Positions 1,882 through 32,192 of a stretch of 64,000 bases of DNA are shown here, one piece after another (the first letter of the stretch is position 1; each line of letters begins with the position of its first letter). The DNA is from a virus. The position numbers and the translations under genes are program-made. The stretch is from the IMG/VR virus record IMGVR_UViG_3300030099_007635, positions 32,001 to 96,000 of that record; one strand, 5' to 3'. A model generated the notes under the pieces. The model did not search any database and had not been told where the DNA came from. It was given only the letters and a program-made list of their open reading frames with translations.

Positions 1882-1909
1882 ATTGTATCAAATTAACCCT
1901 TAAATTCAA
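1882..1909 (-). promoter_or_regulatory. Sigma70-type promoter (TTGAAT-16-TACAAT, extended TGn), probably leaderless
   Basis: Minus strand reads TTGAATttaagggttaatttgaTACAATcagtATG. Confidence 0.5.
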
Positions 1910-14551: not shown

Positions 14552-14787
14552 TTATCTTCCTCCATTGGCTCATTTGCACCCGAGAGATGATTCTCTAGAG
14601 CCTTAGTTAAAGCAAACTCAGTCATACCACAATCAAATTTACAATATATTAAGGGCTTACCATTTTCAGAAGATGCGGCTAAGATTACCCCTTTGTATTT
14701 ATCCGCACCTCCTGATAATTCATAAAGTTTATCAACCATCTCTGTGGGTATTGAAAATTCTGAGTTGCCATCGTCTCCTAAATTCAT
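14548..14787 (-). CDS. Hypothetical protein
   Basis: 79-aa ORF overlapping both neighbours by 4 nt. Confidence 0.7.
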   Translation of the reverse strand: MNLGDDGNSEFSIPTEMVDKLYELSGGADKYKGVILAASSENGKPLIYCKFDCGMTEFALTKALENHLSGANEPMEEDK

Positions 14788-16300: not shown

Positions 16301-16640
16301 CTAAAAAATCTTTTACTGTTTTTATTTTTGGGACGACAGTTTTGTCTTCGCCCACCTTTTCTCCGAAATGATAAGTCTCATATTTGGATAAATCAACCCT
16401 AAAGTTGAAAGCTCTGAATTTTTCATCTAGGGTAGACTTTAGCTTATCGCTTACAAGATAAGCCAGTGAGTCAAACTTCTTTGCAAAGCTGACAATATCC
16501 ATAAATTCTAGGGAATAGCGCTCACATAAATCATTGAGCATTTTCATTTCCCTAGCAAAAAAAGGTCTTCTTCCTTTATCGGGAACTTCCAATAAACGAA
16601 AAATAATCTCTCTTTTGTTTGGACCTTTAGACTTTGCCAC
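16293..16640 (-). CDS. Hypothetical protein
   Basis: 115-aa ORF overlapping both neighbours. Confidence 0.7.
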   Translation of the reverse strand: MAKSKGPNKREIIFRLLEVPDKGRRPFFAREMKMLNDLCERYSLEFMDIVSFAKKFDSLAYLVSDKLKSTLDEKFRAFNFRVDLSKYETYHFGEKVGEDKTVVPKIKTVKDFLDE

Positions 16641-17695
16641 TATGGATACATAACAGGTCCAGCATCCCTGTCAACCATTTTTTTCACAAGCTGTATAAAG
16701 TTGCAGGTAGGTTTCCATCCTAATTCTTCGCGAGCTTTTGAAGAATCTCCAAGTAATAAATCTACTTCCGCTGGCCTATAAAAATCTTTATTAATTTCTA
16801 CAAGACAATCGTTGCCGTGAAAATATTTCTCATTAATTCCTTTACCCCTCCACTCAGATACCGATCTATGAAAACCAACAAAATTAAATGCTTCTATTAC
16901 AAACTCTCTTATTGTGTGTGTTTCATTGGAAGATAAAACATAATCTTTCTCTTTTCCTCTTTCTTGATTAAGCATTAACCAAACGCCTTTAATAAAGTCT
17001 TCTGCATCGCTCCAATCTCTTCGTGCATCTATATTTCCCAATTGTAGAGGTTTGATGACTCTGCCTGTTTCAAACTCTTTAAGAATTCTTGCTACATTTT
17101 TTGTTATTTTTCTTGTTACAAACTCCTCTCCTCTTCGCACTCCCTCATGGTTAAATAACCATCCCTGAACGGCATAGATATCATAAGAATCTCTGTATAC
17201 CTTGACTAAATGCCTAGCGGCGCACTTAGATGCTCCATACGGACTTCTGGGGCGCAATGGGTGCTCTTCTGACTGTGGAGATGTAACAACATCCCCAAAT
17301 TCTTCAGAGCTTCCTGCGTTGTAATATCGACAATGTGGAGCATGACGACGAATAGCCTCTAGTTGATGCAAAACAGCCATACAGTTAGTTTGCATATGAT
17401 TGAAGGGCATGTCCCAACTGCTACCAACAAAGGAATTTGCTGCAAAATTGATAAAGTAATCGGGCTTGTGTTCCGATATGACTCTTTCTGTGTTTTGTGG
17501 GTCTGAAACATCTAAATCAATAAGAAAAAATCTATCGTTACTTTCTAAGTGTTTTATATTTTTATGATTCTCAACACTTAACCTTCTTACTCCTCCAATG
17601 ATTGTGTGTTCCGTATTTTTAAGAAGGTAATCAGCCATCAAGCTACCATCTTGACCTGTAACTCCTGTAACAATTATTGTTTTAATTTCAGACAT
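16640..17695 (-). CDS. gmd: GDP-mannose 4,6-dehydratase family
   Basis: TGVTGQDGS, PRSPYGASK, LFNHE, FVTRKIT, RDWSDAED, RPAEVDLLLGD. Confidence 0.95.
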   Translation of the reverse strand: MSEIKTIIVTGVTGQDGSLMADYLLKNTEHTIIGGVRRLSVENHKNIKHLESNDRFFLIDLDVSDPQNTERVISEHKPDYFINFAANSFVGSSWDMPFNHMQTNCMAVLHQLEAIRRHAPHCRYYNAGSSEEFGDVVTSPQSEEHPLRPRSPYGASKCAARHLVKVYRDSYDIYAVQGWLFNHEGVRRGEEFVTRKITKNVARILKEFETGRVIKPLQLGNIDARRDWSDAEDFIKGVWLMLNQERGKEKDYVLSSNETHTIREFVIEAFNFVGFHRSVSEWRGKGINEKYFHGNDCLVEINKDFYRPAEVDLLLGDSSKAREELGWKPTCNFIQLVKKMVDRDAGPVMYP

Positions 17696-18599
17696 TTTCT
17701 AAATACCAGTTATAAGTTTTTCTTAATCCTTCACACAATGTAGTTGTAGCTTTGAATCCTAAAAGCTCTTCTGCTTTGCTTGTGTCTAGACAGCGCCGTG
17801 GTTGACCGTTAGGTTTATCACTGTCATATACAATTTCCCCATCAAACCCAACTATCATTGCTATTTTTTTAACTAGGTCTTTGATTGTGATTTCAGAACC
17901 AGTTCCAATATTGATGGGTTCAGGATCGTCATGTTTATCCAAGGCTAGCTCGATAGCCTCTGCACAGTCTCCCGCATACAAAAACTCTCGCGAAGCGCTT
18001 CCATCACCCCAAACTTCTACAGAATCCAGATTGTTTACTTTTGCTTCGTGTAGTTTTCTAATCAAAGCAGGTATGACATGGGAACTGTCGAGGTCAAAAT
18101 TGTCATTTTCTCCATACATATTAACAGGAATGAGATGAATGAAGTTATCACCATACTGGTCATTGTAAGCCTTACAGCCAACTAATAAACTTTTTTTAGC
18201 AATACCATAAGGAGCGTTAGTTTCCTCTGGGTATCCATCCCAAATATTTTCCTCCTTAAAGGGAACGGGTGTGAATTTTGGGTAGGAGCAAACACTACCT
18301 AACGTAATTAATTTTTTGACTTTCACATGGTTAGCCATGGCTAAAATATTTATGCTCATCATAGAGTTCTTAGCAAAGAAATCTGCTGGAGATTTTTGAT
18401 TAGCTCCTATTCCCCCACAAACAGCAGCTAAGTGAATAATTGCCTCTGGTTTATGATTTGATAAATAATTATAAAGGTGAACTATGTCTTGCACGTTTAG
18501 CTCAGAGCTATTGGGTGTTAGTAGCTCATGCTTGTCCTTTAATCTTTCAACTAAATGATGACCCAAAAAGCCATGTGATCCTGTAATTAATATTTTCAT
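17688..18599 (-). CDS. fcl: GDP-L-fucose synthase (epimerase/reductase) family
   Basis: LAAVCGGIGAN, SVCSYP, YGIAK, SHVIPALIRK, WGDGSASREFLY. Confidence 0.95.
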   Translation of the reverse strand: MKILITGSHGFLGHHLVERLKDKHELLTPNSSELNVQDIVHLYNYLSNHKPEAIIHLAAVCGGIGANQKSPADFFAKNSMMSINILAMANHVKVKKLITLGSVCSYPKFTPVPFKEENIWDGYPEETNAPYGIAKKSLLVGCKAYNDQYGDNFIHLIPVNMYGENDNFDLDSSHVIPALIRKLHEAKVNNLDSVEVWGDGSASREFLYAGDCAEAIELALDKHDDPEPINIGTGSEITIKDLVKKIAMIVGFDGEIVYDSDKPNGQPRRCLDTSKAEELLGFKATTTLCEGLRKTYNWYLENV

Positions 18600-19423
18600 T
18601 TTAAAAAGTCTGCCAAAAGTGAGTCGATGGCCTGTTTGTAATGTGAATATGGGCGTGGTGCTATAAGTTCTGTGTAGTGTCCATTTTTTAGAGCTTCGGG
18701 GTCATAGTTGAACTTGCCACCGCGAAGGTGTAATCCTCTGTCAATTCTTCTGGGTAGCCACTGTTTTCTGAACATACCCAATTTAACAAAGACACTATCA
18801 TCTACGTTTTTAGAATAACTATCAATGCAATGTGAGGCGTAGCATTCATCTAATCCCCATAGGTTAGGCGGTAAGGTATAATTTCCTCTGTGTGAAAACA
18901 CTTTTGTTATTTCATCTTCCCATCTATCTTCTATGTTGAATATTTTTTTAAATGTAGAACCTTTTGCGGAAAGATGGGAGGTAGGGTAAAATGCATGAGG
19001 AATATTACTGTGGTATCCTAGAGTGTCAGGCGTATAGCCTTCGTAAGCATCATCAAATCCAATTACATATTTTTCTTCATCAATATCTTTTAACAAATCA
19101 AAATAAAAATCAGAAAGATCTATCTCGTCTATTCCTGAAGTAACACAAACATCATTTGGAAATTGGGAAGCTCCCCACTTTAACGCCCAAGTTACAGACC
19201 AGTCTGGTTTTGCAGAGACTGTTACCGCATCTACTCTGTCAACTCTAATGATGTCTCCATGATCCTTAGAGAGATTGCTATCACTAAGCTCTTCTGCGCT
19301 TCCTACATAAATTAGAGTAGGACGCAAATTGAATCTTTCGTTCCAAATAGGAGAAAAGATATTCCAAAAATCCGCATAAAGAGGATTACTGTTTAATGTT
19401 GTTATGATTCTATCTACTTTCAT
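18596..19423 (-). CDS. Uncharacterised protein, possible GT-A glycosyltransferase; paralog of 29224..30018
   Basis: Shares LNSNPLY, TSGIDEI, KGSTFKK and WGLDE blocks with the paralog; glycan-cluster context. Confidence 0.5.
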   Translation of the reverse strand: MKVDRIITTLNSNPLYADFWNIFSPIWNERFNLRPTLIYVGSAEELSDSNLSKDHGDIIRVDRVDAVTVSAKPDWSVTWALKWGASQFPNDVCVTSGIDEIDLSDFYFDLLKDIDEEKYVIGFDDAYEGYTPDTLGYHSNIPHAFYPTSHLSAKGSTFKKIFNIEDRWEDEITKVFSHRGNYTLPPNLWGLDECYASHCIDSYSKNVDDSVFVKLGMFRKQWLPRRIDRGLHLRGGKFNYDPEALKNGHYTELIAPRPYSHYKQAIDSLLADFLK

Positions 19424-19823
19424 GTTCTTTAATCCTTATTCTTAATAATGAAGAAGAATAGTTATGACTTCTGTTATTGTATATTATTTGGTGATTTCTT
19501 CCATCCAAATCCTTGCCTGTAAATTCCTTGCCGCGCCAATCTTGGCCCACAAACCTAAAGTCTAGGGGCAGAACAGTTAATAGCTCTAACAAATCTTTTT
19601 CTGTCTCGTAGGGGATTATCTCAGATACAAACTTGACTGCGTTAAGCTGAATGTATCTCTCCACAATTGATTGAATTGGGATGTTTTTTTCTGGCCTTTC
19701 CGTATTCGGGTTTAAGTGAAGACCAACAATAAGCTTGTCGCATTTAGTAGCACATTCTTCAAGCATTAAAATATGACCAGTGTGTAAAAGGTCAAAAGCT
19801 CCAGCCGTAAAGCCAACTTTCAT
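19410..19823 (-). CDS. HxGH-family cytidylyl/adenylyltransferase (TagD/RfaE-like)
   Basis: AGAFDLLHTGH, VGQDW, RSHNYSSS; start moved to MKVGF. Confidence 0.88.
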   Translation of the reverse strand: MKVGFTAGAFDLLHTGHILMLEECATKCDKLIVGLHLNPNTERPEKNIPIQSIVERYIQLNAVKFVSEIIPYETEKDLLELLTVLPLDFRFVGQDWRGKEFTGKDLDGRNHQIIYNNRSHNYSSSLLRIRIKEHESR

Positions 19824-20326
19824 TATATAGTTGAATGAAGAAAAATTTGATGAAGGCACTCCACTATTCCATAGTCATCGGAGTCTACCCAGTAATTAAT
19901 TGAAGCTGTGTTTTCTGCTTTTTCCCTTAAGGTGTTATTTTCATTAAAACCAGTTAAAACAACATGTTTTGTTTCTACATCTTGGCAATATTTAAGGCAA
20001 TTAATAATATTTTTTGATTCTCCAGAAGAAGAAATTAATATTACCAAACTTCTTGGGCGCTCAAGTTGTGTTAAAAACATTGCAAAAGCCTCATCTTGAC
20101 CATAATCATTAATATAACATGTTAATCTTGACGGGTCTGAAAAAGAGATAGCTTTTTTACCCAGCACCTTGGTATAATCTTGTGCAATATGTGAAGCGAT
20201 TGAATTGCTACCCCCATTGCCTAAGATAATTATCTCTCTGTGATCGTCCACTAGAGATTTTAAGTTTTCACATAGTGTTGTTTCTTCTAATTGAGCGAGA
20301 AGATGTCGTAATTTTTCTATATTCAT
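19823..20326 (-). CDS. gmhA: SIS-domain phosphoheptose isomerase-like protein
   Basis: GNGGSNSIASHIAQD, NDYG, ISSSGESKN, LTGF, VECLH. Confidence 0.85.
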   Translation of the reverse strand: MNIEKLRHLLAQLEETTLCENLKSLVDDHREIIILGNGGSNSIASHIAQDYTKVLGKKAISFSDPSRLTCYINDYGQDEAFAMFLTQLERPRSLVILISSSGESKNIINCLKYCQDVETKHVVLTGFNENNTLREKAENTASINYWVDSDDYGIVECLHQIFLHSTI

Positions 20327-21976: not shown

Positions 21977-21977
21977 A

Positions 21978-22961: not shown

Positions 22962-22964
22962 TTC

Positions 22965-23924
22965 TCATGAATTGTATACGGAGTTATATTTTGTAATAAT
23001 TCCTTTTAAATATGATTGGTGGATTTTGGGCGTTACAAAAGGCTTAGCAAATTTTGTCTGTTTTTTGCTTAATTTTTCCGCAACAGAAGGGTTTTTATTT
23101 AGCCAATTTACGGTGGCTTCCCAATCTATTTCATCAACATGCAGGAAGGCTCCAAAAGTTTTAAAGTAGTGATAATACCAGGACATATCATGACGCTTGG
23201 GGGTAAGGTAAATACAAAGAGAGTTTGAATACATCGCCCATAAAAGTCTGTCCCAACAATTTGTTTCTCCGTTGATGTTAAAAATGTATTTATACTTCAT
23301 TTGATCAGATGGAGCGACAAAGCCACCCTCAATCTTTTTCCAGTCGTATTTTTCTAGATACTCCGCATGCCCATTCGGAGTTACGTTCATGAAGAAGTTT
23401 GTTATTTTAAAGTCTGCTATCTCTGAGTCTTGGTTTTCCCAACAGAACGTAAATCTTTGATTTTCTTTGGGGTTGGCTCCTCCGCAATAACTTCCTGCAA
23501 ATACGGCTCGATCATTTTTGCTAGAAAAATCTATATCCCACTCTCCAAAATAATTAACTAACTGTGCAACGTTAAAGATGTGAGGGTCGGGAATTAAAAT
23601 ATTGCGATCATTTTTGCGACGAGTAAAACATAAGCGAGGAGCACCATCATCATAAAAAGTTAAATCATCGCCAAAGTAAATAATTGTTTCAAAATCTATA
23701 TCGGAAAAATCTAACCCACAACCAGATAAAAGATTCATAAAGGTTCTAATTCTGGAATGGTCTTGGGTGTCGTGTTCCCTGAAAATGTGAACTCCCCCCT
23801 TGTTAATTCGTGCGTGAATTTCTTGCGGTCTTAATTCTGAGCTTTCTAGGTTTTTAAAGTCCCCCTTTGTCAAGTGAGAGATTTCTTTGTTAACACAAAA
23901 ATCTACAATTTGTTTTTCGGTCAT
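22965..23924 (-). CDS. GT90/CAP10-like glycosyltransferase
   Basis: ILIPDPH, W..K.DRAVFAG, QMKYKYIFNING..WDRL, WYY; start moved to ATG 23924 (ATGA overlap). Confidence 0.75.
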   Translation of the reverse strand: MTEKQIVDFCVNKEISHLTKGDFKNLESSELRPQEIHARINKGGVHIFREHDTQDHSRIRTFMNLLSGCGLDFSDIDFETIIYFGDDLTFYDDGAPRLCFTRRKNDRNILIPDPHIFNVAQLVNYFGEWDIDFSSKNDRAVFAGSYCGGANPKENQRFTFCWENQDSEIADFKITNFFMNVTPNGHAEYLEKYDWKKIEGGFVAPSDQMKYKYIFNINGETNCWDRLLWAMYSNSLCIYLTPKRHDMSWYYHYFKTFGAFLHVDEIDWEATVNWLNKNPSVAEKLSKKQTKFAKPFVTPKIHQSYLKGIITKYNSVYNS

Positions 23925-24832
23925 GACTGCTGTGTGTTTATCCAGTCTAAAAGGTTGGTTTCTGGCTTCCACCCCAAAATATATTCAGCCTTAGAATTAC
24001 CCGCTAAGCTTTCTTTAATTTCACCCAGACGAGGCTTAATGAAAACATAATCTCCTTTAATGTGTTCTGCTATTTCTAGAATGCTGTAATTTCTACCCGT
24101 TCCAATATTAAAGGTTTCTCCTGAAACTTTATCATTGTCTAGATTGGCGGCTAAAACATTAGCCCTAACAACATCCCCAACATAGGTGAAGTCTCTTCTT
24201 TGAGTCCCGTCACCAATGACGGTCATAGGTTCTCCATCTCCTTTTTGTCTTAAAAAGATTCCAATGACGGGCGCATATTGGCCTTTTAATGGTTGCCTCT
24301 CACCGTAGACATTGAAATATCGCAGGATTGAGGTTTGTAAACCAAAGAGGTTTGTATACATTTTGCAAAACTCTTCTCCTGCCACTTTGCTCACTGAATA
24401 TGGATTAAGGCAGTCGTTTGTCATTACCTCCACATTCGGAATGGTGTTTTTGATTCCATAAGAGGCAGAAGTCGAGCTATATACTACTCTTTTTACCCCA
24501 GATTCTTTTGAGCACTGTAGAATAGTGCAAGTGCCAACCGTATTAACTTGAGCCGCCAGAATTGGATTCTTTAGAGTGGGCTGAATACGAGACTCGGCGG
24601 CAAGATGAAATACTATATCCACCCCATCAAACAATGGCCTGATATTTTCATAGTCACAAATATCCAATTTGTGATTTTCTGCTTGATCATTCCAATAAAA
24701 TGAATCGTGTGATTCACTTGATTCATTATCTATGACTTTTACTTTCCATCCTAGACTTATAAGATAATCTGTTAGATTAGATCCAATAAACCCCGCACCA
24801 CCAGTAATAATCGCTGTTTTTTTATTTTGCAT
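23921..24832 (-). CDS. NAD-dependent nucleotide-sugar epimerase/dehydratase
   Basis: TGGAGFIGS, YSVSK, RYFNVYG, GDGTQRRDFTYV. Confidence 0.93.
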   Translation of the reverse strand: MQNKKTAIITGGAGFIGSNLTDYLISLGWKVKVIDNESSESHDSFYWNDQAENHKLDICDYENIRPLFDGVDIVFHLAAESRIQPTLKNPILAAQVNTVGTCTILQCSKESGVKRVVYSSTSASYGIKNTIPNVEVMTNDCLNPYSVSKVAGEEFCKMYTNLFGLQTSILRYFNVYGERQPLKGQYAPVIGIFLRQKGDGEPMTVIGDGTQRRDFTYVGDVVRANVLAANLDNDKVSGETFNIGTGRNYSILEIAEHIKGDYVFIKPRLGEIKESLAGNSKAEYILGWKPETNLLDWINTQQS

Positions 24833-25670
24833 TATGCTTAAGGCTGTTTATTAGGGATTTAACCCTTTTCGTATAGGAATGCGTGGAAGAAAGAAATTCT
24901 CCCTGCTTGGATATTTTATCAAGTTTGTCCTTATTGTCTAAATAATACTTTAATTTTTCCGTTAATGAGTCAAGGTCGCGATAAAAAATCACATTTTCCC
25001 CATCTCTGAAACCAAGATAGTCATACATGTGATTATGATCTGTTATTAGCGCCGTTCCGCATCCAATCGTTTCAAAATTGCGATAATTTAAATCGTTAAA
25101 CATATTTTTATTAAAGTGCAGTTTTGTTTTGTTTATTGTCTCAACCATTTTGTCACCAATAACGAAAATGTGCTGCTGCAAATTAAAAGTTTGAGTTAAA
25201 AAATCTAAAAGACCCTTTCTATTAACGTGGTTGCCCACAAAAGACAGATCAATTGATTTGTCTAGTTTAAGGTTTTTTATTTTTTTATCGCAGAAGGCAT
25301 TGGCAAACCAAAGGTGGTGTGGCTCTCTCACATAATCTAAGGTAGAGTGTAATAGTAGTTGATATTTTCCTTTTTTGAAGATTTCCTCATAGGGTTCCTC
25401 ACCTCGACAATGTGCGTCGATACTCCATAACATCTTAAATGGCTTGTTACATTTTGATAAATCGGGAAGCCACTCGTCTCCGTAATTTTCTAAATTTAAA
25501 ATAAAATCAAAACTATTGAAATTGGGAGGAGTTTCGAAATTTTCATGTCCTTTACCGTAGACGGTAGGCTCCCAACCCTCTTCTTTAAAGGCGCGATAAA
25601 GACATAAACACTCCCTAAAGTCTGAGTTTTCAACATGGCGACTCGCCTCTTGTATAATTAATATTTTCAT
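24822..25670 (-). CDS. Glycosyltransferase, CgeB-like GT-B
   Basis: LSFVGN, NYRNFETIGCG, C-terminal HSYTKRV. Confidence 0.8.
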   Translation of the reverse strand: MKILIIQEASRHVENSDFRECLCLYRAFKEEGWEPTVYGKGHENFETPPNFNSFDFILNLENYGDEWLPDLSKCNKPFKMLWSIDAHCRGEEPYEEIFKKGKYQLLLHSTLDYVREPHHLWFANAFCDKKIKNLKLDKSIDLSFVGNHVNRKGLLDFLTQTFNLQQHIFVIGDKMVETINKTKLHFNKNMFNDLNYRNFETIGCGTALITDHNHMYDYLGFRDGENVIFYRDLDSLTEKLKYYLDNKDKLDKISKQGEFLSSTHSYTKRVKSLINSLKHNAK

Positions 25671-26368
25671 GGGCGAAAAAAGTTTTTCTTATACCCTTTA
25701 AATTTGACTAATAGGTCTGACTCAATCTCGGGAGGCATTGATTTGTTGTATTTTCCTTGTCCCAATGACTTTAGCTCTGATAACTTTTTCTCTTGTAGAA
25801 TTTTTAATGAATCCAGCATGAGTTTTTGCTCTAAATTTTGAATTCGTAATTGAATATCTAACAAGCTATCGTCGGGATATACTTTAATATCTTTTCTTTT
25901 TAAAAGCTTTCCCTTGTCTATTTCGGCGTTTATAAGGTGAGCGGTTGCGCCTTGAGGTAAATTGTCCTCTATTGCCCACTTTATTGTATCTAAACCTCTG
26001 TTTTCTGGCAAAATCCCAGGATGCATGTTTATAACCCCAATCTTAAAATCTTCAAAAGCAACAGGCTTAAGTATTCTGGCTCCTAGTATAATTCCCACAT
26101 CAAGTTCGTTGATATTTATTAGATTTTTAACCTTTTGGGAGTTATGTTTAACCACATGATATTCTATTCCATAAAAATCACACAGTTTTTTAGGGTGAGT
26201 CAAAAATAAGTCTTTGGGTCCAGTTCTTATTTTAGATTGATAAAATTTTAATTCCACTGGGTCTGCCGCGAAAACAATTTCAGGTTTATATCCCTCAATA
26301 CACAAATTATGCAAACCCATTTGTGTCTTTAGATGAGGGAAGTTATATGCAAAAACTCCTATTTTCAT
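25667..26368 (-). CDS. N-formyltransferase (sugar formyltransferase-like)
   Basis: INMHPGILPENRG, TAHLINAEIDKG. Confidence 0.85.
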   Translation of the reverse strand: MKIGVFAYNFPHLKTQMGLHNLCIEGYKPEIVFAADPVELKFYQSKIRTGPKDLFLTHPKKLCDFYGIEYHVVKHNSQKVKNLININELDVGIILGARILKPVAFEDFKIGVINMHPGILPENRGLDTIKWAIEDNLPQGATAHLINAEIDKGKLLKRKDIKVYPDDSLLDIQLRIQNLEQKLMLDSLKILQEKKLSELKSLGQGKYNKSMPPEIESDLLVKFKGYKKNFFRP

Positions 26369-27165
26369 ATTAATTTAGACAATAGCATATGAGACTTGCG
26401 GCAGTCGAGCTTTTTATTGCTGAAAAAAAACTTTTGCTCGTTTTCGATTGAAGATGCCTTTTCTACAAAAAGCGATTCAGAAACATGATGTCCATTTAAT
26501 TGCCAATGTTTTATTACTGACTGCTCTTGTAGATCTGCTATATAAGTGCAATTGGATTGGCGAACTATTATTTTTCTTTCTTTAAAGAAAGTATCTTTGC
26601 TCCAGATCATTCTGCATAAAGGAGAAGACGAGGAAAATACTGTTGTTTTATTAAGCTTCATAACTTTATAATCTGTTACCTCGTCTAAATCTAAAAGGTG
26701 AAAAAGTAAATCTATGTCGTGTATCCCAATGTCTTCAAAAATAGAAACGTCTGAGGACTCTTCAGAAACACAACATCTACTAAAGTCTATGTTTATAAGC
26801 TTGTCTTTTTCTATGCTTTTTTTTAAGGTTTGGATTGTAGGATTAAATCTTTCAACCATTCCTACCATAAGGTTTTCATCTGCCAACATGATATCAACGT
26901 GACCTTTTTTCAGAGCCACAGGCTTTTCCACAAAAATCTTACCCTTATATCCGCTATTTCTCACATACACATAATTGTCGTAGTGATATTTTTCGGGAGA
27001 TGTAATAAATATTCTATCAAAACAATTTAAATTATTTAAATCACACCTTTTGGACAAAGGTCCAACTGGATCGGGATCATACCAATACCAGTCTATATTG
27101 TTTTTGGTTAAATATTTAGCGTGAACCTTGCCTATGTTTCCATAGCCTATTATTAAACACTTCAT
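26365..27165 (-). CDS. Gfo/Idh/MocA oxidoreductase
   Basis: IGYGNIG, FVEKP, ERFNP, DIGIHDIDL. Confidence 0.9.
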   Translation of the reverse strand: MKCLIIGYGNIGKVHAKYLTKNNIDWYWYDPDPVGPLSKRCDLNNLNCFDRIFITSPEKYHYDNYVYVRNSGYKGKIFVEKPVALKKGHVDIMLADENLMVGMVERFNPTIQTLKKSIEKDKLINIDFSRCCVSEESSDVSIFEDIGIHDIDLLFHLLDLDEVTDYKVMKLNKTTVFSSSSPLCRMIWSKDTFFKERKIIVRQSNCTYIADLQEQSVIKHWQLNGHHVSESLFVEKASSIENEQKFFFSNKKLDCRKSHMLLSKLI

Positions 27166-27509
27166 AGTTCTTCAATTCTTTTGGCCTTGTCATCAATTAC
27201 TAAATCAAAAGCTGGTTTAGGTTTTGGGCTTGTCCCTGTAATCAATTCGTGATATTTACAACCCCATTGTTGAAGTTGTTGTGTTGTGTATTCATAATAA
27301 TCTACGCCTGAAGTCGCCCCTCTCGCAGTCCAATAAATAATCCTCCAGCCTTTCTCATAAAGGCCGTTTATCTTTTCTATATTTTTTTTGCTTGGAATTG
27401 CTAAATCATATCGTCGAGAACCTTTTTTATAATAACAGATGGTTTCGTCTATATCTACTAATGCCACCTTCCCTGTAATTGTTTTTTTGCTAGCTTCTTG
27501 AAAGTTCAT
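27162..27509 (-). CDS. Minimal HAD-superfamily phosphatase
   Basis: VDIDETIC, WTARG, KP..DLVIDDK. Confidence 0.85.
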   Translation of the reverse strand: MNFQEASKKTITGKVALVDIDETICYYKKGSRRYDLAIPSKKNIEKINGLYEKGWRIIYWTARGATSGVDYYEYTTQQLQQWGCKYHELITGTSPKPKPAFDLVIDDKAKRIEEL

Positions 27510-27510
27510 T

Positions 27511-28158
27511 TTAATAGTTTTCTGTAGGAGAATTTTTATACCACCAAAGAGGGTGAGTGCTGACTAATAGCTTCTTCCATTTGTTTAAGTGCAGAGAAAA
27601 ACAGCCCTCTCGCCACCTACAGCTACTATCTGATAAATATTTAAAATCCCTAAAGGTAGAAGAATTGGGACATCTATTTTTTTCAGGAATAAGGTCTTTT
27701 ACATCTATTCCCGTTCTAACTGGTTCGTGGATATTGAAGCATTTTATTTCTTTTCCTAGAATGTTAGAGAGTATTTTTAACTCGCTATTAACATGTTCTT
27801 CGTGTGAAGCGTTTTGGGGGCAAAAACTAGGCTCATAATGCAGTCCTATTTGCTGTCCAGCATTTAGTATTTTTTTGGCTATTTCAATAGAAGCTGGTGA
27901 TAGCATATTGTATTGTCTTGCATGTAATCTTAAGAAATAAGTCGAAATAACACCAAGCTCTTTTTCTGTGTCCAAAAAATTAGAACAAAGAGATATGTCG
28001 TGATCAACATCATGAACTAACACAATTATTTTGCAACTGTCTGCCAAGGGCAATCCTGCCCCTCCATCCCATGGGGTGATTGCATCACGAAATACATATC
28101 CCTCATCTTTGTATTTTTGTAACGTGTTTTTGTAATGTCTTATGGTAAAGTCGCTCAT
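27511..28158 (-). CDS. Polysaccharide-deacetylase-like protein
   Basis: HDVD, STYF, IGLHY, HEP, YLSDS, THPLWW. Confidence 0.75.
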   Translation of the reverse strand: MSDFTIRHYKNTLQKYKDEGYVFRDAITPWDGGAGLPLADSCKIIVLVHDVDHDISLCSNFLDTEKELGVISTYFLRLHARQYNMLSPASIEIAKKILNAGQQIGLHYEPSFCPQNASHEEHVNSELKILSNILGKEIKCFNIHEPVRTGIDVKDLIPEKNRCPNSSTFRDFKYLSDSSCRWREGCFSLHLNKWKKLLVSTHPLWWYKNSPTENY

Positions 28159-28159
28159 T

Positions 28160-29224
28160 TTATTTATCTATAACCCTCCCGTTATATTCAAAAATTTCTT
28201 TCCAAACTCTGGTTAATTTGGTTCCCCATTTTATTTTGTAATCATTTGTATTTTCTATTGATAATACTTCACAGATAGCTGCTTCAAGCAGATCAACACC
28301 CGCACCTCTACAGTGCTCCATGGTGCCTGAAACTCTGGGGTTTATTTCTAGAAGTTTGGGTTGTCCTTGTGAATTATATTTAAACTGTAGGTTTATATTA
28401 TATTTTAAATCTAGAGCATTATATAAAGTCTTTGAAAGGCTTATTAAATCTTGTTTTTCTTTAGTCTCTCCCCCAGTGCATATTCCCTCTTTTATCTGAT
28501 CTCTGCTTCTAGGTATACAGAAAAAATTTTTCTTTGTTCTTAAACAGTCTACGCTATACTCCTCCCCTTCTAGATATTCCATTATCATTAAATCTTGAAA
28601 AGATTTGCCGCCGTCTGATAGAATTTTGTATAAGTCGGAGAACGAAATATTGCTTTGAGTATTTTTTTGAGAGAAGAAGTCTTTTTTGCTTATGTTTTCT
28701 TTAATTATTCTAAACCCTCTGCTGCCGTGCGCTGAAACAGGCTTGACACAAGTAGTTATTCCTTTCTTGTCAAAGAACTGATAAAGTTCAGATAAATCGT
28801 CTACATTATTACAGATATTATAACTGGGAATAATCTGCCCAAGCCCCACTTTTTTACAAAACTTAAATAAGCTGTCCTTGTTTAATATTTTTTTCAAGGA
28901 AGAGCTTCCTGATGCAAGTATTTTACAAGATATGCTTGAAAAATCTGAAGCAGCAGTCGCTAAAGGTATTAACTCTTCATCTGCACAAGGTATAATGAGT
29001 TTTATGTTGTTTTTTTTACAATAGCTGAATAGTGTGGGAATATATTCTGGAGACGCTCCTTTGGGGGATTTAAATGAGTGTTCAGCAAACTTAAGACCAA
29101 GAGAGTCTGGGTTCATATCGCAGCCATGAATCGAAACATCCCTTAAAAGAGAAGAAGATTTAATAGAATTTCTAATATTAAGAAACCCAGGACAACCAGC
29201 GGCTGTTACTAAAATGTTTGTCAT
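28160..29224 (-). CDS. ATP-grasp ligase
   Basis: VKPV..HGSRG, MEYLEGEEYSVD, LLEINPRVSG. Confidence 0.88.
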   Translation of the reverse strand: MTNILVTAAGCPGFLNIRNSIKSSSLLRDVSIHGCDMNPDSLGLKFAEHSFKSPKGASPEYIPTLFSYCKKNNIKLIIPCADEELIPLATAASDFSSISCKILASGSSSLKKILNKDSLFKFCKKVGLGQIIPSYNICNNVDDLSELYQFFDKKGITTCVKPVSAHGSRGFRIIKENISKKDFFSQKNTQSNISFSDLYKILSDGGKSFQDLMIMEYLEGEEYSVDCLRTKKNFFCIPRSRDQIKEGICTGGETKEKQDLISLSKTLYNALDLKYNINLQFKYNSQGQPKLLEINPRVSGTMEHCRGAGVDLLEAAICEVLSIENTNDYKIKWGTKLTRVWKEIFEYNGRVIDK

Positions 29225-30018
29225 TATCTAATTCTTATATCTTTTAATAGTTTGTCAATTAGAGCTTGATTGTTTGGATCGCTAAGCGGTCTAACCATGT
29301 GTGCGGTCCAATAAAAACCATTGTTAATTAGCTCGGCATTGTAGCCAAAACCGTCCCTAGACCTACATATTTTCTTTGATTGAAGATTTTCTGAAACCCA
29401 AGCCTCTTCTAAAAAATATACGTCAGGGCTATCAAAAACAAATGTTGAAATATAATCTTCATCTAATCCCCACCAATTGTTTCCTCTTCCTATCGAAGAA
29501 GCCCTTGGTAGCTGTGTTTTAATAGACCATACTTTATTTAATTCATCATGAAGGTCATTATCTATATTAAATACTTTTTTAAATGTAGATCCTTTTCCAG
29601 AATTTTGACCACTTCCTATGAGCTTCTCTGGGCCATATGGGTGTGGACCTAATCCAACCACAAACTTAGAATCATCTATCGGCTCTATCCTGTCCCATAA
29701 GGCGCTGGAAAGTGGAATTTCATCTATTCCAGATGTAAGACAAAAATCATTTGGGAAAAGATTTGCGATACCCCAATAAAGAGACCAAGTTACAGTCCAG
29801 TCTAGACTGGGGTTGCTTATAAATTCTTCATGCTTAGGCAATAGGTAAACCTCTCCAAAATTAAAATTAACCTCCTTTTCAAGTTCCTCTTGAGTCCCTG
29901 CAAAAAGTAGGGTGGGAATAAGTGGCGTTTTTTTTGAATAAACTTCCGAAACAATGTTCCACATCCCCGAGTAAAGCGGATTGGAATTTAAAGCAAAAAC
30001 TACTCTATCTAATTTCAT
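29224..30018 (-). CDS. Uncharacterised protein, possible GT-A glycosyltransferase; paralog of 18596..19423
   Basis: Shared motif blocks with the paralog. Confidence 0.5.
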   Translation of the reverse strand: MKLDRVVFALNSNPLYSGMWNIVSEVYSKKTPLIPTLLFAGTQEELEKEVNFNFGEVYLLPKHEEFISNPSLDWTVTWSLYWGIANLFPNDFCLTSGIDEIPLSSALWDRIEPIDDSKFVVGLGPHPYGPEKLIGSGQNSGKGSTFKKVFNIDNDLHDELNKVWSIKTQLPRASSIGRGNNWWGLDEDYISTFVFDSPDVYFLEEAWVSENLQSKKICRSRDGFGYNAELINNGFYWTAHMVRPLSDPNNQALIDKLLKDIRIR

Positions 30019-30662
30019 CTTAACATCTCTCCGTGTTCAGGGTGCAGGGGTTGGTTTTCGGCGTTGAATGCTTGCCCAACAAAGTTTGTTCCAACACGGG
30101 CAGAGGGAAACGGGTTAATTTCAAAAAATTCATCATGAATGCAGCAATCGTTGTTAATAATTGGATATATACGTTCTCTTAAAAAGTTTTGGTCTACCTG
30201 CCAAAAGTCACCCTTGTGGTATTTTTCAATGAGATTATCCATGTCTTTTAGAAGATCTCCTCTAACCCCCCACATGCCCCCAAGTATTTCTGTTTTGTGA
30301 AAGGGATGGTCTCTCATAATGTGAAAACTTTTTCCGCTAGAAAGCCACTGATCTACTGCTAATTTCTCCCTTTTGTCGAGCCTACAGTCAGTATCGCGTG
30401 ATATCATTACATCTACAGTGGGGTCGCTTGCTGGAGAAAATCTCCAAAACATGCCGTTCCAACTTCCCTCTTCGTTCATTTCAATCACTTTAGTGTTAGG
30501 TTGTTCTTTTAATTGTTCTTTAATTTCAAGAGGACAAGATTTGCCCACATAAAACCAACACTCCCATTCAGGGTAAATTTCTTGGGCAATCTTAGCATTA
30601 TTAACTGCACCTACTGTATAAACAGGGTCTGTCCCCCATAAACTAAAGCTTATAACTTTCAT
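30015..30662 (-). CDS. Putative GT-A fold glycosyltransferase
   Basis: VISFSLWG, WRF, ISRDTD (DxD), MRDHP, GGMWG, DQNFL. Confidence 0.6.
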   Translation of the reverse strand: MKVISFSLWGTDPVYTVGAVNNAKIAQEIYPEWECWFYVGKSCPLEIKEQLKEQPNTKVIEMNEEGSWNGMFWRFSPASDPTVDVMISRDTDCRLDKREKLAVDQWLSSGKSFHIMRDHPFHKTEILGGMWGVRGDLLKDMDNLIEKYHKGDFWQVDQNFLRERIYPIINNDCCIHDEFFEINPFPSARVGTNFVGQAFNAENQPLHPEHGEMLR

Positions 30663-31408
30663 TGGTATAAATTTTGAATTTCTCTATCTTCCTTTTGTGC
30701 TAACTGTAAATTTTCTACAGAAACAGAATCATCCCTGTGGTAGAAACAACCTATGATGTCTGGTATTTTTTTAAATTTAAATTTATTGGCAGAGAGATTT
30801 AGCCACATCTCATAATCTCCCGAAGAGGTGTATTTTTCTTTGAAGAATCCACATTTTTCTATAGCTTCTTTCCTTACCAGTGGAAATGGGCCACCAATAC
30901 AAAGTTTAAGTAGAGTTTCGTGTGAATAGTCGGGCCAATTTCTCATGCCTACGATATTATCAAAGCTTTGTGAGTTAATAACACAGCATGGACTATAAAA
31001 CAAATCTACTTTTGGATTTCTTAATATATATTCTGTATATGTTTGAAGAGCGGATGGATACAATAAGTCATCAGTATTCCAATTCATAACATAGTGACCA
31101 TTAGCTTCTCTTATCCCCATATTCCAAGCTGTATAGATACTAATTCTTTCTAGATTTTCTATAATGCTTACTTTTATTCCATCTCTAAAATCAAATTTTT
31201 GTATTATCTCTAGAGAGTTGTCGGTGGAATTAGCATCAATAAAAATAACTTCAAAGCTGTCCTCAAATTGATTATTGAGGGCATTTAAATATCCTTCTAA
31301 CCACTTAGAAGCATTATAAACAGAGCAAATAACAGAAATTTTAGGCCATTGTTGCCTCTTCCCAAAATTTCCGCGCTGCTCCTTCACAACCGTTTTTAAA
31401 GTTTTCAT
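30659..31408 (-). CDS. GT2 glycosyltransferase (start uncertain)
   Basis: KISVICSVYN, IDANSTD, AWNMGI, NTDD, GDYEMWL. Confidence 0.88.
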   Translation of the reverse strand: MKTLKTVVKEQRGNFGKRQQWPKISVICSVYNASKWLEGYLNALNNQFEDSFEVIFIDANSTDNSLEIIQKFDFRDGIKVSIIENLERISIYTAWNMGIREANGHYVMNWNTDDLLYPSALQTYTEYILRNPKVDLFYSPCCVINSQSFDNIVGMRNWPDYSHETLLKLCIGGPFPLVRKEAIEKCGFFKEKYTSSGDYEMWLNLSANKFKFKKIPDIIGCFYHRDDSVSVENLQLAQKEDREIQNLYQ

Positions 31409-32192
31409 ATCCTACTTTTTCAAATTCTAAATAAGAGCCTATTTTGGAACGGTCTCCAATTATTTCCTCTACTCCACATAAAAGAGCCTCTGCTATCATT
31501 CGGCAGAAAGGTTCATTTACAATTGGTGCGTGAAATACCGCTCGCGCTTGTTGAAATATCGAAGCTGTTTCGTGATGTTCACAAGACCCGTTAAATATAA
31601 TATTTTTTTCACCCTCAAAAAGACTGTGGGGGTTTCTATCTGACCAACCAAAAACATCCACCTTTCTGTCTGGGTTATTTCTTGCAAAGTTCAAAAGGTT
31701 ATTTAGTCCCTTAAGTGGGTGTAAATAGCCACAATAAACAACATCATATTTTTTTTTCTTCTCTTCTTTTTTGAAAATTTTTGTGTTGATAGGGTCGTAA
31801 ACTATCACGGCATTTTTGAAATAATCGCCATAAAGATCTTTAAAGAAAGAATAATGATAATCACTTAAAAAGAAATTCTTTTTTGAATTATTAAACAAGA
31901 TGCGCCTCTCCCCATTGGATAAATAAGAGCATGAATCGTGCTCAAGCCTAACAGAATTAGGAAGTCTCTCAATCATGTTGAGCTTAGCAGGGGAAGTTTT
32001 GCTGATTGCCTCTAGATTTGAGTTTACTACCAAATCATAAGACGTTAAAAAATCAACAATAGAAGAATTGTGATGATGCTCATCAATCTGATAACCTAGA
32101 CTTCTACCCTCTTCAATAATTAGAGAATTACTGACTTGTGCTCCACCTTGTCTTTGTTGAAGAGTAAAATCAGATATAAATAAAATTTTCAT
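31341..32192 (-). CDS. GT-B (GT4-like) glycosyltransferase
   Basis: GGAQ, G.LHPLKG, EPFCRMIAEALLCG. Confidence 0.88.
   Translation of the reverse strand: MKILFISDFTLQQRQGGAQVSNSLIIEEGRSLGYQIDEHHHNSSIVDFLTSYDLVVNSNLEAISKTSPAKLNMIERLPNSVRLEHDSCSYLSNGERRILFNNSKKNFFLSDYHYSFFKDLYGDYFKNAVIVYDPINTKIFKKEEKKKKYDVVYCGYLHPLKGLNNLLNFARNNPDRKVDVFGWSDRNPHSLFEGEKNIIFNGSCEHHETASIFQQARAVFHAPIVNEPFCRMIAEALLCGVEEIIGDRSKIGSYLEFEKVGYENFKNGCEGAARKFWEEATMA

Follow-up and report, generated by a model that had tools for sequence, protein, structure and literature searches.

A stretch of 64 kb from an uncultured marine phage (hereafter, the window) carries, at positions 16640-32192 of the minus strand, a swappable glycan-synthesis cassette that has no predicted membrane-spanning segments, evolves under purifying selection and occupies a fixed slot in its phage lineage, a description in which we place high confidence. 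The source encodes a DnaE polymerase, DnaB, a primase, UvsX, RNR and a tape-measure protein of 2393 aa, which identifies it as a phage, and its lineage is abundant and marine, with genomes of ~105-117 kb; no near match to the phage or the locus was found among 50,697 phage records. Related phages keep the slot and fill it with other sugar genes, a pattern already known from marine cyanophages. New here are the hypervariable slot, the cassette exchange seen in the related genome G005, a GT-A family that appears nearly confined to viruses and a marginal profile match to the chlorovirus enzyme A64R.

The ORF listing gives 20 ORFs, all on the minus strand and running from 32192 down to 16640 (Table 1), and adjacent genes either overlap or are separated by no more than 3 nt, which bears out the tight same-strand coupling described in an earlier sequence-only reading of this DNA. 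Seven sugar-nucleotide enzymes, eight glycosyltransferases and five tailoring enzymes are encoded; that reading's enzyme assignments are supported by domain, profile and fold evidence in all 20 cases, two of them weakly, and its overall interpretation is partly supported. At three long ORF overlaps the true start probably lies further into the ORF, or else the genes genuinely overlap: the nucleotidyltransferase probably begins at M13 (19823) and the GT90-like protein at M17 (23924), while the GT2 gene, unlike the other long-overlap genes, has no internal Met before its domain.

Table 1. Genes of the cluster and of its two borders in window coordinates, with the basis of each assignment
Feature	Position	Strand	Basis
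Conserved 115-aa gene between Gmd and UvsX	16293..16640	-	present in 74/80 related loci
Gmd (GDP-mannose 4,6-dehydratase), 351 aa	16640..17695	-	PF16363 E 2.8e-101; TIGR01472 E 3e-94
Fcl (GDP-L-fucose synthase-like), 303 aa	17688..18599	-	NF047922 E 2.8e-94, 316 bits vs cut-off 500; PF01370
Family X paralogue 1, GT-A fold, 275 aa	18596..19423	-	AF2 pLDDT 95.4 + Foldseek
HxGH nucleotidyltransferase (RfaE domain II/TagD-like)	19410..19859	-	PF01467 E 3.8e-11; TIGR02199 E 2e-14
GmhA-like SIS sugar-phosphate isomerase, 167 aa	19823..20326	-	PF01380/PF13580; TIGR00441 GmhA E 1e-17, under cut-off
HddA-like GHMP sugar kinase, 306 aa	20323..21243	-	PF00288; NF049969 HddA E 5e-26, under equivalog cut-off
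Class I SAM methyltransferase, 248 aa	21230..21976	-	PF13489 E 4.6e-13
GT-B-like glycosyltransferase, virus-dominated family, 327 aa	21978..22961	-	ESM Atlas; weak PF00534, E 0.15
GT90-like glycosyltransferase	22965..23972	-	PF05686 24.0 bits, exactly at cut-off 24
SDR nucleotide-sugar epimerase/dehydratase, 303 aa	23921..24832	-	PF01370 E 4e-58; GalE/LegB-like
GT-B glycosyltransferase (Glyco_trans_1_2), 282 aa	24822..25670	-	PF13524 E 1.2e-19
Formyltransferase (PurN/sugar N-formyltransferase-like), 233 aa	25667..26368	-	PF00551 E 5e-16; NCBIfam
Gfo/Idh/MocA sugar dehydrogenase, 266 aa	26365..27165	-	PF01408; UDP-GlcNAc 3-dehydrogenase-like E 2.6e-14
Minimal HAD phosphatase, 115 aa, candidate GmhB equivalent	27162..27509	-	phrog_1238 E 5e-23; phrog_415 PNK-phosphatase; DIDET motif
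CE4/NodB-type deacetylase-like protein, 215 aa	27511..28158	-	profile of 42 homologues vs PDB
ATP-grasp ligase, 354 aa	28160..29224	-	PF15632 E 1.6e-31; PylC-like_N; PDB 2pn1 E 1e-6
Family X paralogue 2, GT-A fold, 264 aa	29224..30018	-	fold taken from paralogue's model
Single-domain GT-A glycosyltransferase, 215 aa, weakly A64R-like	30015..30662	-	AF2 pLDDT 92 + Foldseek
GT2 (GT-A) glycosyltransferase, 249 aa	30659..31408	-	PF00535 E 3.3e-19; NCBIfam GT matches
GT-B glycosyltransferase (GT1/GT4-like), 283 aa	31341..32192	-	PF00534 E 1.2e-9
Conserved 138-aa gene, upstream island border	32224..32640	-	homologues flank island in G001, L071, L072, L075, L076

The donor-pathway, assembly and tailoring steps proposed here are read from protein families. 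Gmd, a near-core gene of the lineage, would convert host GDP-mannose to GDP-4-keto-6-deoxymannose, from which Fcl would complete GDP-L-fucose; the SIS isomerase, GHMP kinase, mini-HAD phosphatase and HxGH nucleotidyltransferase would follow a four-step NDP-heptose logic starting at sedoheptulose-7-phosphate, and the SDR epimerase and Gfo/Idh/MocA dehydrogenase may remodel host UDP-sugars. The heptose module resembles the GDP-D-glycero-alpha-D-manno-heptose pathway (GmhA, HddA, GmhB, HddC) in holding an isomerase, a GHMP anomeric kinase, a HAD phosphatase and a nucleotidyltransferase, the first three matching GmhA, HddA and a HAD PHROG family labelled 'phosphoheptose isomerase' by PHROGs, and in one related locus (L062) a minimal HAD phosphatase gene is placed between the GmhA and nucleotidyltransferase genes. 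It differs from that pathway in that all scores lie far under the equivalog cut-offs, the nucleotidyltransferase is of the HxGH/RfaE-domain-II type and not of the HddC fold, and the phosphatase is a minimal HAD, so that the heptose-type product may differ in nucleotide and anomer. The cluster holds neither a GDP-mannose pyrophosphorylase nor an aminotransferase to partner the formyltransferase, and host GDP-mannose and UDP-sugars are therefore required. With these two enzymes missing, the earlier description of the system as self-contained was too strong. At least one further glycosyltransferase is encoded outside the cluster (2-1398, PF00534), and a second is a candidate by PHROG annotation (36479-37558, phrog_2170).

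Up to eight soluble glycosyltransferases would join the donor sugars into an oligosaccharide. For the three GT-A proteins, AlphaFold pLDDT values of 92-95 are backed by Foldseek. The 215-aa GT-A protein belongs to a very large marine metagenomic family (>5000 homologues) and is matched by Foldseek to glycogenin and to PBCV-1 A64R (E 7e-7 to 8e-7, A64R at 8e-7); the sole match of its profile in the PDB is 2p6w (A64R; E 0.007, 16-17% identity). This link to A64R is marginal, and by VIA-align, with Z 13-14 against many GT-A enzymes, the modelled fold is generic GT-A. The two paralogues of what we call family X share 36% identity (E 7e-50); the first matches B3GalT5, WbbM, GT8 and GT6 structures in the PDB (Foldseek E 2e-6, TM ~0.47), and the top viral structural match of the family is an S-SCSM1 glycosyltransferase. 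Family X comprises 25 clusters among 5.8e9 proteins and 25 IMG/VR loci, whereas 185,579 species genomes gave a single match, whose contig is syntenic with viral contigs and probably viral itself; family X genes adjoin Gmd-like genes in other phage lineages. Judged by a peptide-pattern scan and sparsely labelled metagenomic data, the family appears to occur almost only on viral contigs. The closest ESM Atlas clusters of the 327-aa GT-B-like protein are 94-100% viral, giant viruses among them, and some neighbouring clusters carry PF00534 (87% of members at a feature score of 0.97; 67% in the structure row, TM 0.83); both this protein and family X look virus-specific.

Cluster enzymes would also decorate the oligosaccharide: the methyltransferase by O-methylation, possibly the CE4-like enzyme by de-N-acetylation, followed by re-acylation through the formyltransferase or through amide ligation by the ATP-grasp protein, a probable amide-bond-forming enzyme. 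The deacetylase-like profile matches chitin, xylan and peptidoglycan deacetylases in the PDB (best E 1.7e-4), residues H49, D50, D52, H107 and H144 are invariant, and the ESM Atlas points weakly to PF01522.

The synteny check in related phage contigs that the sequence-only reading had proposed finds conserved flanks with a hypervariable slot between them. The flanks kept across the lineage are RNR and the 138-aa gene, whose start is preceded at 9 nt by a GTGTAAT motif, and, on the other side, Gmd, the 115-aa gene and UvsX, with Gmd serving as the conserved anchor and downstream border (of 80 related loci, 63 have it beside the 115-aa gene and UvsX); the island lies in the replication-gene block, away from the structural genes. 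In 33 related loci, 295 island proteins fall into 161 families at 30% identity, all of which look like sugar chemistry and which include SDRs, DegT, NeuB, carbamoyltransferase, FkbM, radical SAM, GT2, GT1 and GT11 members. G001 is collinear with the window at 75-92% amino acid identity, and its slot is filled by an unrelated 11.6-kb sugar cluster. G005 is more distant in its core, where dS is saturated, yet it shares the window's island except for the formyltransferase gene, with dS of 0.02-0.4 in 11 genes; synonymous divergence so far under that of the core genes indicates a recent cassette exchange. Purifying selection is seen in dN/dS values of 0.05-0.32 across the 16 island genes that allowed computation.

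Export machinery is absent wherever it was sought. None of the 20 cluster proteins reaches a Kyte-Doolittle value of 1.6 in a hydrophobic 19-mer, so that the transmembrane check proposed earlier finds no membrane-spanning protein; no ORF in the window other than the tape-measure gene is polytopic even at 1.3, each of the 295 island proteins from the 33 loci has at most one hydrophobic segment, no transmembrane protein was found in G001 (94% complete) or G005, and Bac_transf, the initiating transferase, is absent from the island proteins of relatives. The earlier statement that flippase, polymerase, initiating transferase and multi-TM proteins are missing therefore holds for the cluster, the window, G001 and the related islands. 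If bacterial O-antigen loci had been captured whole, wzx, wzy or wzm should have come along at least occasionally. However, O-antigen glycosyltransferases are soluble too and act on host undecaprenyl-PP intermediates, so the missing membrane genes are compatible with use of host machinery, and their absence alone is insufficient to establish a cytoplasmic acceptor. What survives of the earlier claim of a glycan on such an acceptor is that the locus encodes a complete set of soluble enzymes for building a glycan and no export components; the acceptor does not follow from it.

The acceptor, the weakest step of the scheme, would be a cytoplasmically made phage protein, most likely at the virion surface, and a virion protein is the acceptor that we tentatively favour, at somewhat less than even confidence. 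The lack of membrane proteins in the cluster, window, G001, G005 and related islands suggests it, as do the hypervariable slot, cassette exchange, selection and virus-specific-looking glycosyltransferases; the profile match of the 215-aa protein to A64R, which glycosylates the chlorovirus capsid, may be a marginal pointer in the same direction. The GT90-like gene, cited earlier in favour of protein O-glycosylation, has PF05686 in 11 of 24 homologues, but its own match falls exactly on the Pfam threshold. Virus-encoded cytoplasmic virion glycosylation has precedents in mycobacteriophages, as relayed in later papers (Freeman 2023; PMC10527164, via PMC12619734, PMC12801897), and in PBCV-1 (PDB entry titles of 2p6w, 2p72, 2p73). 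Against a virion acceptor stands the position of the island between RNR and UvsX, whereas mycobacteriophage glycosyltransferases adjoin structural genes, and structural proteins show no obvious Ser/Thr-rich tail. If the virion is glycosylated, particles would bear a strain-specific glycan coat, comparable to those of chloroviruses, mimiviruses and some mycobacteriophages.

Remodelling of the host envelope is possible, if rather doubtful: phage enzymes would build the oligosaccharide on a host undecaprenyl-PP or lipid A-core primer, a host flippase or ABC exporter and ligase would display it, and the altered surface of the infected cell would block superinfection, grazing or recognition. The gene content parallels that of O-antigen and capsule loci, with chemistry for 6-deoxyhexose, heptose, NulO, aminosugar, methyl, formyl and carbamoyl groups; GT11 fucosyltransferases occur in relatives, and the island is hypervariable in much the way that bacterial glycan islands are. 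However, no polytopic protein is found among the 295 island proteins or the ORFs of the 94%-complete relative, the initiating transferase is missing, and several glycosyltransferase families appear virus-restricted and not borrowed from bacteria. Membrane proteins are part of the known phage seroconversion systems (Gtr, Oac), a foreign many-sugar unit would have to be accepted by the host's Wzx, Wzy and WaaL, and in a lytic infection receptors already on the cell remain there. Host-surface remodelling is how similar cyanophage and pelagiphage clusters are interpreted (PMC1079782, PMC7029224, PMC9602691), being the standard interpretation of their 'LPS' genes and published for pelagimyophage islands and for those of P-SSM2, S-SCSM1 and S-SCSM2R (PMC1079782, PMC9602691, PMC12801897, PMC7029224).

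A product attached to no virus or envelope macromolecule (a soluble glycoside, glycosylated small molecule or cytoplasmic glycan acting, for example, as a metabolic sink, signalling molecule or inhibitor of host defence), or a host protein as target, seems improbable. Every cluster enzyme is soluble, ATP-grasp, formyltransferase and methyltransferase enzymes are also typical in natural-product tailoring, and genes for radical SAM/SPASM proteins and a carbamoyltransferase occur in relatives, but the island holds no aglycone-forming enzyme (PKS, NRPS, cyclase), eight glycosyltransferases imply an oligosaccharide and not a decorated small molecule, and the lineage-wide Gmd anchor suits a structural glycan. 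Least probable is DNA hypermodification, raised as a possibility in the earlier reading, in which a glycan on a modified base would defeat restriction, as in T-even phages, the arabinosyl-5hoC of RB69/DLP3 and MT/TET/GT clusters. To our knowledge, all known routes to DNA glycosylation need a hydroxylated base, from a ThyA homologue or from a C5-methyltransferase plus TET. Neither a ThyA-family hydroxylase/hydroxymethylase (PF00303) nor a C5-methyltransferase (PF00145) is found in four relatives (G001-G004) or, by family, among the scanned window ORFs; TET has no match in the scanned window ORFs, and a TET search whose controls were silent carries no weight. DNA is an unlikely acceptor because neither ThyA-family nor C5-methyltransferase precursor-base enzymes turned up in the relatives, and eight glycosyltransferases with methyl, formyl and amide tailoring go far beyond known DNA glycans. 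The island does lie between RNR and recombination/replication genes, the gene for the candidate glycosyltransferase (phrog_2170) shows translational coupling with that for SSB, restriction arms races could drive such diversity, and the glycans known from phage DNA are varied (bioRxiv 10.1101/2023.12.21.572611; PMC13326640).

Among known systems, bacterial Wzx/Wzy- or ABC-transporter-dependent O-antigen and capsule loci share the enzyme families, the donor-transferase-tailoring logic and a comparable hypervariability, but the window has no initiating phosphoglycosyl transferase, flippase, polymerase/ABC permease or chain-length regulator. The capsid glycosylation system of chlorovirus PBCV-1 (A64R and partners) likewise combines virus-encoded soluble glycosyltransferases with its own GDP-fucose branch, PBCV-1 encoding Gmd/GMER; its host is an alga, whereas here it is a bacterium. 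Mycobacteriophage-encoded cytoplasmic glycosyltransferases decorate capsid and tail-tube proteins; in the account relayed by PMC12619734 (PMC10527164), they are one or two enzymes beside structural genes, with no donor synthesis, whereas the 20 genes of the cluster encode donor pathways as well and sit at a distance from the structural genes. Novelty was overstated earlier: comparable clusters, of putative function, are already published for cyanomyoviruses and pelagimyophages. The hypervariable host-recognition island of pelagimyophages and cyanomyophages, interpreted as modifying the O-chain, is also non-syntenic, set between conserved modules and rich in glycosyltransferase and deoxy-sugar genes (PMC7029224), but it lies in the structural module with tail fibres, while the window's is fibre-free, in the replication block and anchored by a conserved Gmd. 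The cyanophages P-SSM2 (24 such genes in two clusters), S-SCSM1 (Gmd, Fcl and fucosyltransferases) and S-SCSM2R (22 such genes, 13 of them glycosyltransferases) are lytic marine phages with tens of sugar-nucleotide and glycosyltransferase genes of putative function (PMC1079782, PMC9602691, PMC12801897, cited jointly). By comparison, the window phage belongs to a separate uncultured lineage, distinguished by its DnaE, tape measure and genome size, and its 20 genes lie together as one uninterrupted block in a fixed slot, a block that adds a heptose module, an ATP-grasp protein, a CE4-like enzyme and an apparently nearly virus-only GT-A family.

The glycan-synthesis island lies in a segment of a tailed-phage genome that encodes a DnaE-type polymerase with a separate exonuclease, a DnaB helicase, a primase, a UvsX-like recombinase and SSB, together with a ClpC-like ATPase, class I RNR subunits, head genes and a 2393-aa tape-measure protein; no tRNAs were found in the window. 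The structural genes occupy 38-64 kb of the window, with the predicted tube and tail genes at 38-51 kb, and the island sits between RNR and UvsX. Megablast of the island against 50,697 phage records gave no DNA-level match, the terminase-sized protein of the window matched nothing in the phage database and UvsX had only 26% matches there; the phage is therefore without a cultured relative, and its DnaE-type polymerase reaches at most 28-30% identity to that of any cultured phage. The 20 ORFs run on the minus strand from 32192 to 16640, every junction in the ORF listing being an overlap or a gap of no more than 3 nt, and their G+C content equals that of the flanks. Scanning 15-34.9 kb for promoters and terminators returned counts equal to the shuffled expectation, leaving no internal signal that could be claimed. 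Given such tight spacing, and no excess of promoter- or terminator-like sites over shuffled sequence, one long transcript starting upstream would be the simplest reading.

The motif GTGTAAW, at 3200, 7043, 32650, 35308, 49252, 55359 and 62641 on the minus strand and at 51343 on the plus strand, stands 5-20 nt before the start codons of eight genes; one of these copies is 9 nt ahead of the 138-aa gene with which the island begins. Its total in the window, 21 against 15.6 +/- 4.3 expected, is not above chance and, since it precedes replication and structural operons alike, it provides no argument about the timing of the island. Similarity to DUF5824 was detected in a 427-aa protein and, very weakly, in the 138-aa gene (see table).

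The inventory drawn up by the sequence-only reading proved correct for all 20 genes: seven donor enzymes, eight transferases and five tailoring enzymes, as judged by Pfam, NCBIfam, models and profiles. Pfam and NCBIfam confirm Gmd (PF16363, 339.8 bits), Fcl, an SDR epimerase, a GmhA-like SIS isomerase, an HddA-like GHMP kinase and a nucleotidyltransferase of the HxGH type, nearest to RfaE domain II and TagD. They also confirm the GT2, GT1 and Glyco_trans_1_2 GT-B enzymes, and a tailoring set of SAM methyltransferase, formyltransferase, Gfo/Idh/MocA dehydrogenase and ATP-grasp ligase. The GT90-like call falls exactly at the Pfam threshold, and PF05686 is also found in 11 of 24 homologues. Six cluster ORFs without a Pfam match were assigned by PHROGs, models and profile searches; Pfam and PHROGs at permissive E-values gave nothing for six proteins, and single-sequence PDB searches yielded either no match or chance-level matches only for the ORFs at 18596, 22965, 27511, 30015, 36479 and 2-1398.

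Features assigned in and around the island, with window coordinates, strand and the evidence for each
Feature	Coordinates	Strand	Evidence
Minimal HAD phosphatase	27162-27509	-	phrog_1238, E 5e-23; DIDET motif
Family X GT-A paralogue X1	18596-19423	-	36% identity to X2
Family X GT-A paralogue X2	29224-30018	-	36% identity to X1
GT-A glycosyltransferase, 215 aa	30015-30662	-	model pLDDT 92
CE4 deacetylase-like protein	27511-28158	-	profile match to CE4 polysaccharide deacetylases, E 1.7e-4
GT-B-like protein, 327 aa	21978-22961	-	sits among virus-dominated clusters, some annotated GT1
Glycosyltransferase outside the island, 465 aa	2-1398	-	GT1 C-terminal domain, PF00534, E 2.8e-11
Candidate glycosyltransferase outside the island, 359 aa	36479-37558	+	phrog_2170 'glycosyltransferase'
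Class I SAM methyltransferase	55382-56044	-	PF08241, E 9.5e-16; in head-gene block
427-aa protein	1906-3189	-	DUF5824 similarity, E 1e-9
138-aa gene bordering the island	32224-32640	-	DUF5824 similarity, very weak, E 0.036

The AlphaFold model of family X, the paralogous pair in the table, was built with 26 homologues (pLDDT 95.4) and has a GT-A fold, its nearest structures being B3GalT5, WbbM, glycogenin, LgtC and the blood-group transferases. The family profile of the 215-aa GT-A enzyme matched a single PDB chain, the PBCV-1 glycosyltransferase A64R, an enzyme acting on the chlorovirus capsid, with an E-value of 0.007 over the C-terminal half; Foldseek gave E 8e-7 and a TM of 0.54-0.58 for the same pair, and A64R is not outstanding by VIA-align. 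Five residues of the CE4-like protein (H, D, D, H and H) are invariant, a set that we take to fit a CE4-type metal site.

Both enzymes of the GDP-L-fucose pathway, Gmd and the epimerase/reductase, are present as clear family members scoring below the equivalog cut-offs (315.9 bits against 415 for TIGR01472 and 316 against 500 for NF047922), so that a 6-deoxyheptose or another GDP-sugar is possible as substrate. By family chemistry, the pair would convert host GDP-mannose to GDP-fucose. The NTP_transferase and phosphomannomutase families, which would indicate ManB/ManC supply, were absent from the approximately 48 window ORFs scanned. Since no ManC was found, host GDP-mannose would be drawn on, and the term 'self-contained', used in the sequence-only reading, is too strong. 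All four enzyme classes of an NDP-heptose route are also present, with best matches to GmhA, HddA, HAD and RfaE-II, and in the related locus L062 the GmhA, HAD and nucleotidyltransferase genes are contiguous and adjoin Gmd. Isomerase, GHMP kinase, HAD phosphatase and nucleotidyltransferase would, again by family chemistry, lead in four steps from sedoheptulose-7-phosphate to an NDP-heptose. The module scores far under the equivalog cut-offs (64 against 209, 92 against 600 and 54 against 181 bits) and the nucleotidyltransferase is of the RfaE-II and not the HddC type, so that more than one NDP-heptose is possible as the product. Possibly, Gmd and Fcl work on NDP-heptose in a single 6-deoxyheptose pathway like that of Campylobacter DmhA/DmhB; however, Gmd is found in 63 of 80 relatives and the heptose genes in very few, and the nucleotidyltransferase of the island does not have the GDP-type HddC fold. 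Up to eight glycosyltransferases, judging by their families, would assemble the oligosaccharide. More speculatively, the CE4-like enzyme might bare an amine on an N-acetyl sugar for formylation or ATP-grasp amide ligation; no aminotransferase lies beside the formyltransferase.

The sequence-only reading saw no flippase, polymerase or initiating transferase, an absence borne out by Kyte-Doolittle scanning of the cluster, the window, 295 island proteins and the relatives G001 and G005. With 19-residue windows and a threshold of 1.6, none of the 20 cluster proteins contains a transmembrane window. The tape measure excepted, no ORF in the 64-kb window is polytopic even at 1.3, and none of at least 250 aa carries three or more hydrophobic segments; none of the 295 proteins from the islands of 33 related loci (0/295) carries two or more. 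The wider absence of export and DNA-modification genes was tested on the relatives G001-G005, standing in for the remaining ~50 kb of the phage's own genome; among these relatives, G001 is a 104-kb contig, 94% complete by CheckV, whose gene order follows that of the window with 75-92% identity between the proteins. No polytopic ORF was found in G001 or G005, and the initiating transferase family Bac_transf (PF02397) is absent from G001-G004, with controls positive in 10 of 14 cases.

Synteny in related contigs, a check proposed from the sequence alone, revealed a single fixed slot in which Gmd is the conserved anchor and the fill varies. A UvsX search retrieved 80 related IMG/VR loci (68-100% identity), among which the 115-aa gene next to Gmd occurs in 74, Gmd in 63 and Fcl in 39, and most other cluster genes in 0-7. 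Clustered at 30% identity, the 295 island ORFs of 33 loci make up 161 families. A Pfam census of 149 representatives recovered SDR dehydratases/epimerases, DegT aminotransferases, NeuB, a carbamoyltransferase, FkbM methyltransferases, transketolase, radical SAM/SPASM proteins and GT2, GT1, GT11 and RXYLT1-like domains. The slot shrinks to only ~4 kb in locus L076; in G001, 11.6 kb between the 138-aa gene and Gmd hold genes entirely unlike those of the window. This island of the closest near-complete relative (L082-L083, 37639-49195) suggests, from N-termini examined by eye (SDR dehydratase, cytidylyltransferase-like), a nonulosonic-acid-type pathway; NeuB and DegT both occur in the census, but a DegT gene was not found in G001.

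Relative G005 carries the island of the window on a core that is farther from the window than that of G001 (UvsX 67%, DnaE 76% and ClpC 61% identical), with synonymous sites saturated in all three core genes. Its island proteins are 60-99.6% identical to those of the window. Values of dS are 0.02-0.04 for two genes, those of the methyltransferase and the 327-aa GT, and ~0.2-0.4 for Fcl, both family X paralogues and the GmhA-like, HddA-like, CE4-like, ATP-grasp and 215-aa GT-A genes; dN/dS is 0.05-0.32 wherever computable. A distant, saturated core combined with low island dS and low dN/dS indicates that island segments have recently moved between divergent phages and are held under purifying selection. 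Single genes also come and go within the otherwise common cassette. The G005 island (L118) has an extra 428-aa gene (14354-15640) between the nucleotidyltransferase and GT-A X1, and is devoid of the formyltransferase equivalent to window 25667-26368. Near-identical copies of the island are found in seawater metagenomes from 11 studies, 2014 to 2025.

Family X looks restricted to viruses: 5.8 billion proteins yielded 25 clusters, 25 viral contigs were found to carry it, and among 185,579 species genomes it was matched once, on a contig that is itself syntenic with viral ones. Elsewhere, the family adjoins Gmd-like genes and phage replication genes. The sole 'cellular' match, L116 (RFNS01000277.1), is a 10.9-kb contig from an Alphaproteobacteria MAG; it shares its gene order with the viral contigs L095 and L110, and so probably represents either a prophage or phage sequence that was binned with the MAG. 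Outside the island, the lineage conserves the GT1-type protein, which is 71-75% identical in G001 and G005, and the candidate 359-aa enzyme, whose start overlaps the SSB stop and which has no Pfam or PDB sequence match; this second one is 68% identical in G001. Each might be a conserved enzyme that primes the variable glycan. The SAM methyltransferase of the head-gene block, directly downstream of a capsid-sized gene (56573-57724), could be a virion-protein or DNA methylase.

The sequence-only reading had placed the glycan on a cytoplasmic acceptor, most likely virion proteins or possibly DNA, and is partly supported: the soluble glycan kit without export parts stands, no acceptor was found, and DNA now appears very improbable. 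A virion protein is ranked somewhat above the host surface because membrane parts are missing from all 295 island proteins, family X looks virus-restricted, the 327-aa GT-B enzyme belongs to a virus-dominated family and a weak link to A64R exists. Against a virion acceptor, the arguments in its favour are indirect and the island sits in the replication block. A scan of the window proteins for Ser/Thr-rich acceptor tails gave nothing convincing. The glycan could instead reach the host surface via the host's lipid-linked primers and exporters, a route open to such a kit since O-antigen glycosyltransferases are soluble. This is the published default for the islands of P-SSM2 (24 such genes), S-SCSM1 (Gmd, Fcl and fucosyltransferases), S-SCSM2R (22 genes, 13 of them GTs) and the pelagimyophages (PMC1079782, PMC9602691, PMC12801897, PMC7029224).

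In every documented phage DNA glycan, the underlying base comes from a ThyA homologue or from the combined action of a C5-methyltransferase and TET (PMC13326640; bioRxiv 10.1101/2023.12.21.572611). The ThyA family was not found among the scanned window ORFs, and PF00303 (ThyA-family dCMP/dUMP hydroxymethylase, 5hoC synthase) is absent from the 94% complete G001 and from G002-G004, with controls positive in 10 of 14 cases; PF00145 (C5-cytosine methyltransferase) is absent from G001-G004, and its controls were positive. In the search for PF12851 (TET/JBP dioxygenase), the relatives and its own controls were equally silent. Phage DNA glycosylation systems also have a DNA-acting GT, T4 alpha/beta-GT-like or JGT/TarP-like; the candidate next to SSB (36479-37558) had no PDB sequence match.

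Lytic marine phages with large 'LPS-like' gene clusters have been on record since 2005; to our knowledge, what these clusters glycosylate has never been shown, and the literature assumes the host surface. The present locus is another case, in a new phage lineage, of the kind described in marine cyanophages and pelagiphages, and it adds a fixed-slot cassette structure, phage-to-phage exchange, the absence of membrane parts throughout the lineage and a GT-A family not described before. With its fixed slot, Gmd anchor, 161 families over 33 loci that include no membrane component, near-virus-only GT families and direct signs of recent cassette exchange under purifying selection, the lineage provides an unusually clean data set for the acceptor question. 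Were the glycan attached to the virion, particles of marine phages would bear diverse glycan coats, with consequences for adsorption, decay, grazing and stickiness in the ocean; were it attached to the host surface, a lytic phage would be rewriting the glycotype of its host with soluble parts only. In both cases, the cassette offers sugar-tailoring enzymes in compact form, and with them a previously undescribed GT-A family that is nearly confined to viral contigs. We tentatively propose, with less than even confidence, that the slot is a phage 'serotype locus', by which each phage of this abundant ocean lineage would coat its particle in a fucose/heptose-based glycan that differs by strain and is synthesised wholly in the host cytoplasm, the cassettes being traded between distant phages. 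Such a locus would parallel, on the viral side, the O-antigen diversity of bacteria; its presumed driver would be any agent that recognises or degrades particles in seawater.

Bacterial O-antigen and capsule loci, whether Wzx/Wzy- or ABC-dependent, share with the island an operon combining nucleotide-sugar synthesis with several glycosyltransferases, but they have a WbaP/Bac_transf or WecA-type polytopic initiator and a flippase plus polymerase, or an ABC-2 permease, of 6-12 TM helices, all of which the island lacks. The mycobacteriophage type, in which GT genes stand beside the capsid and tail genes whose C-termini are modified, differs in location, the island lying at the RNR-UvsX site; no Ser/Thr-rich tails were seen here. 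Virion glycosylation of the chlorovirus/mimivirus type, like the island, relies on soluble viral glycosyltransferases and the virus's own donor enzymes, with no ER, Golgi or periplasmic step.
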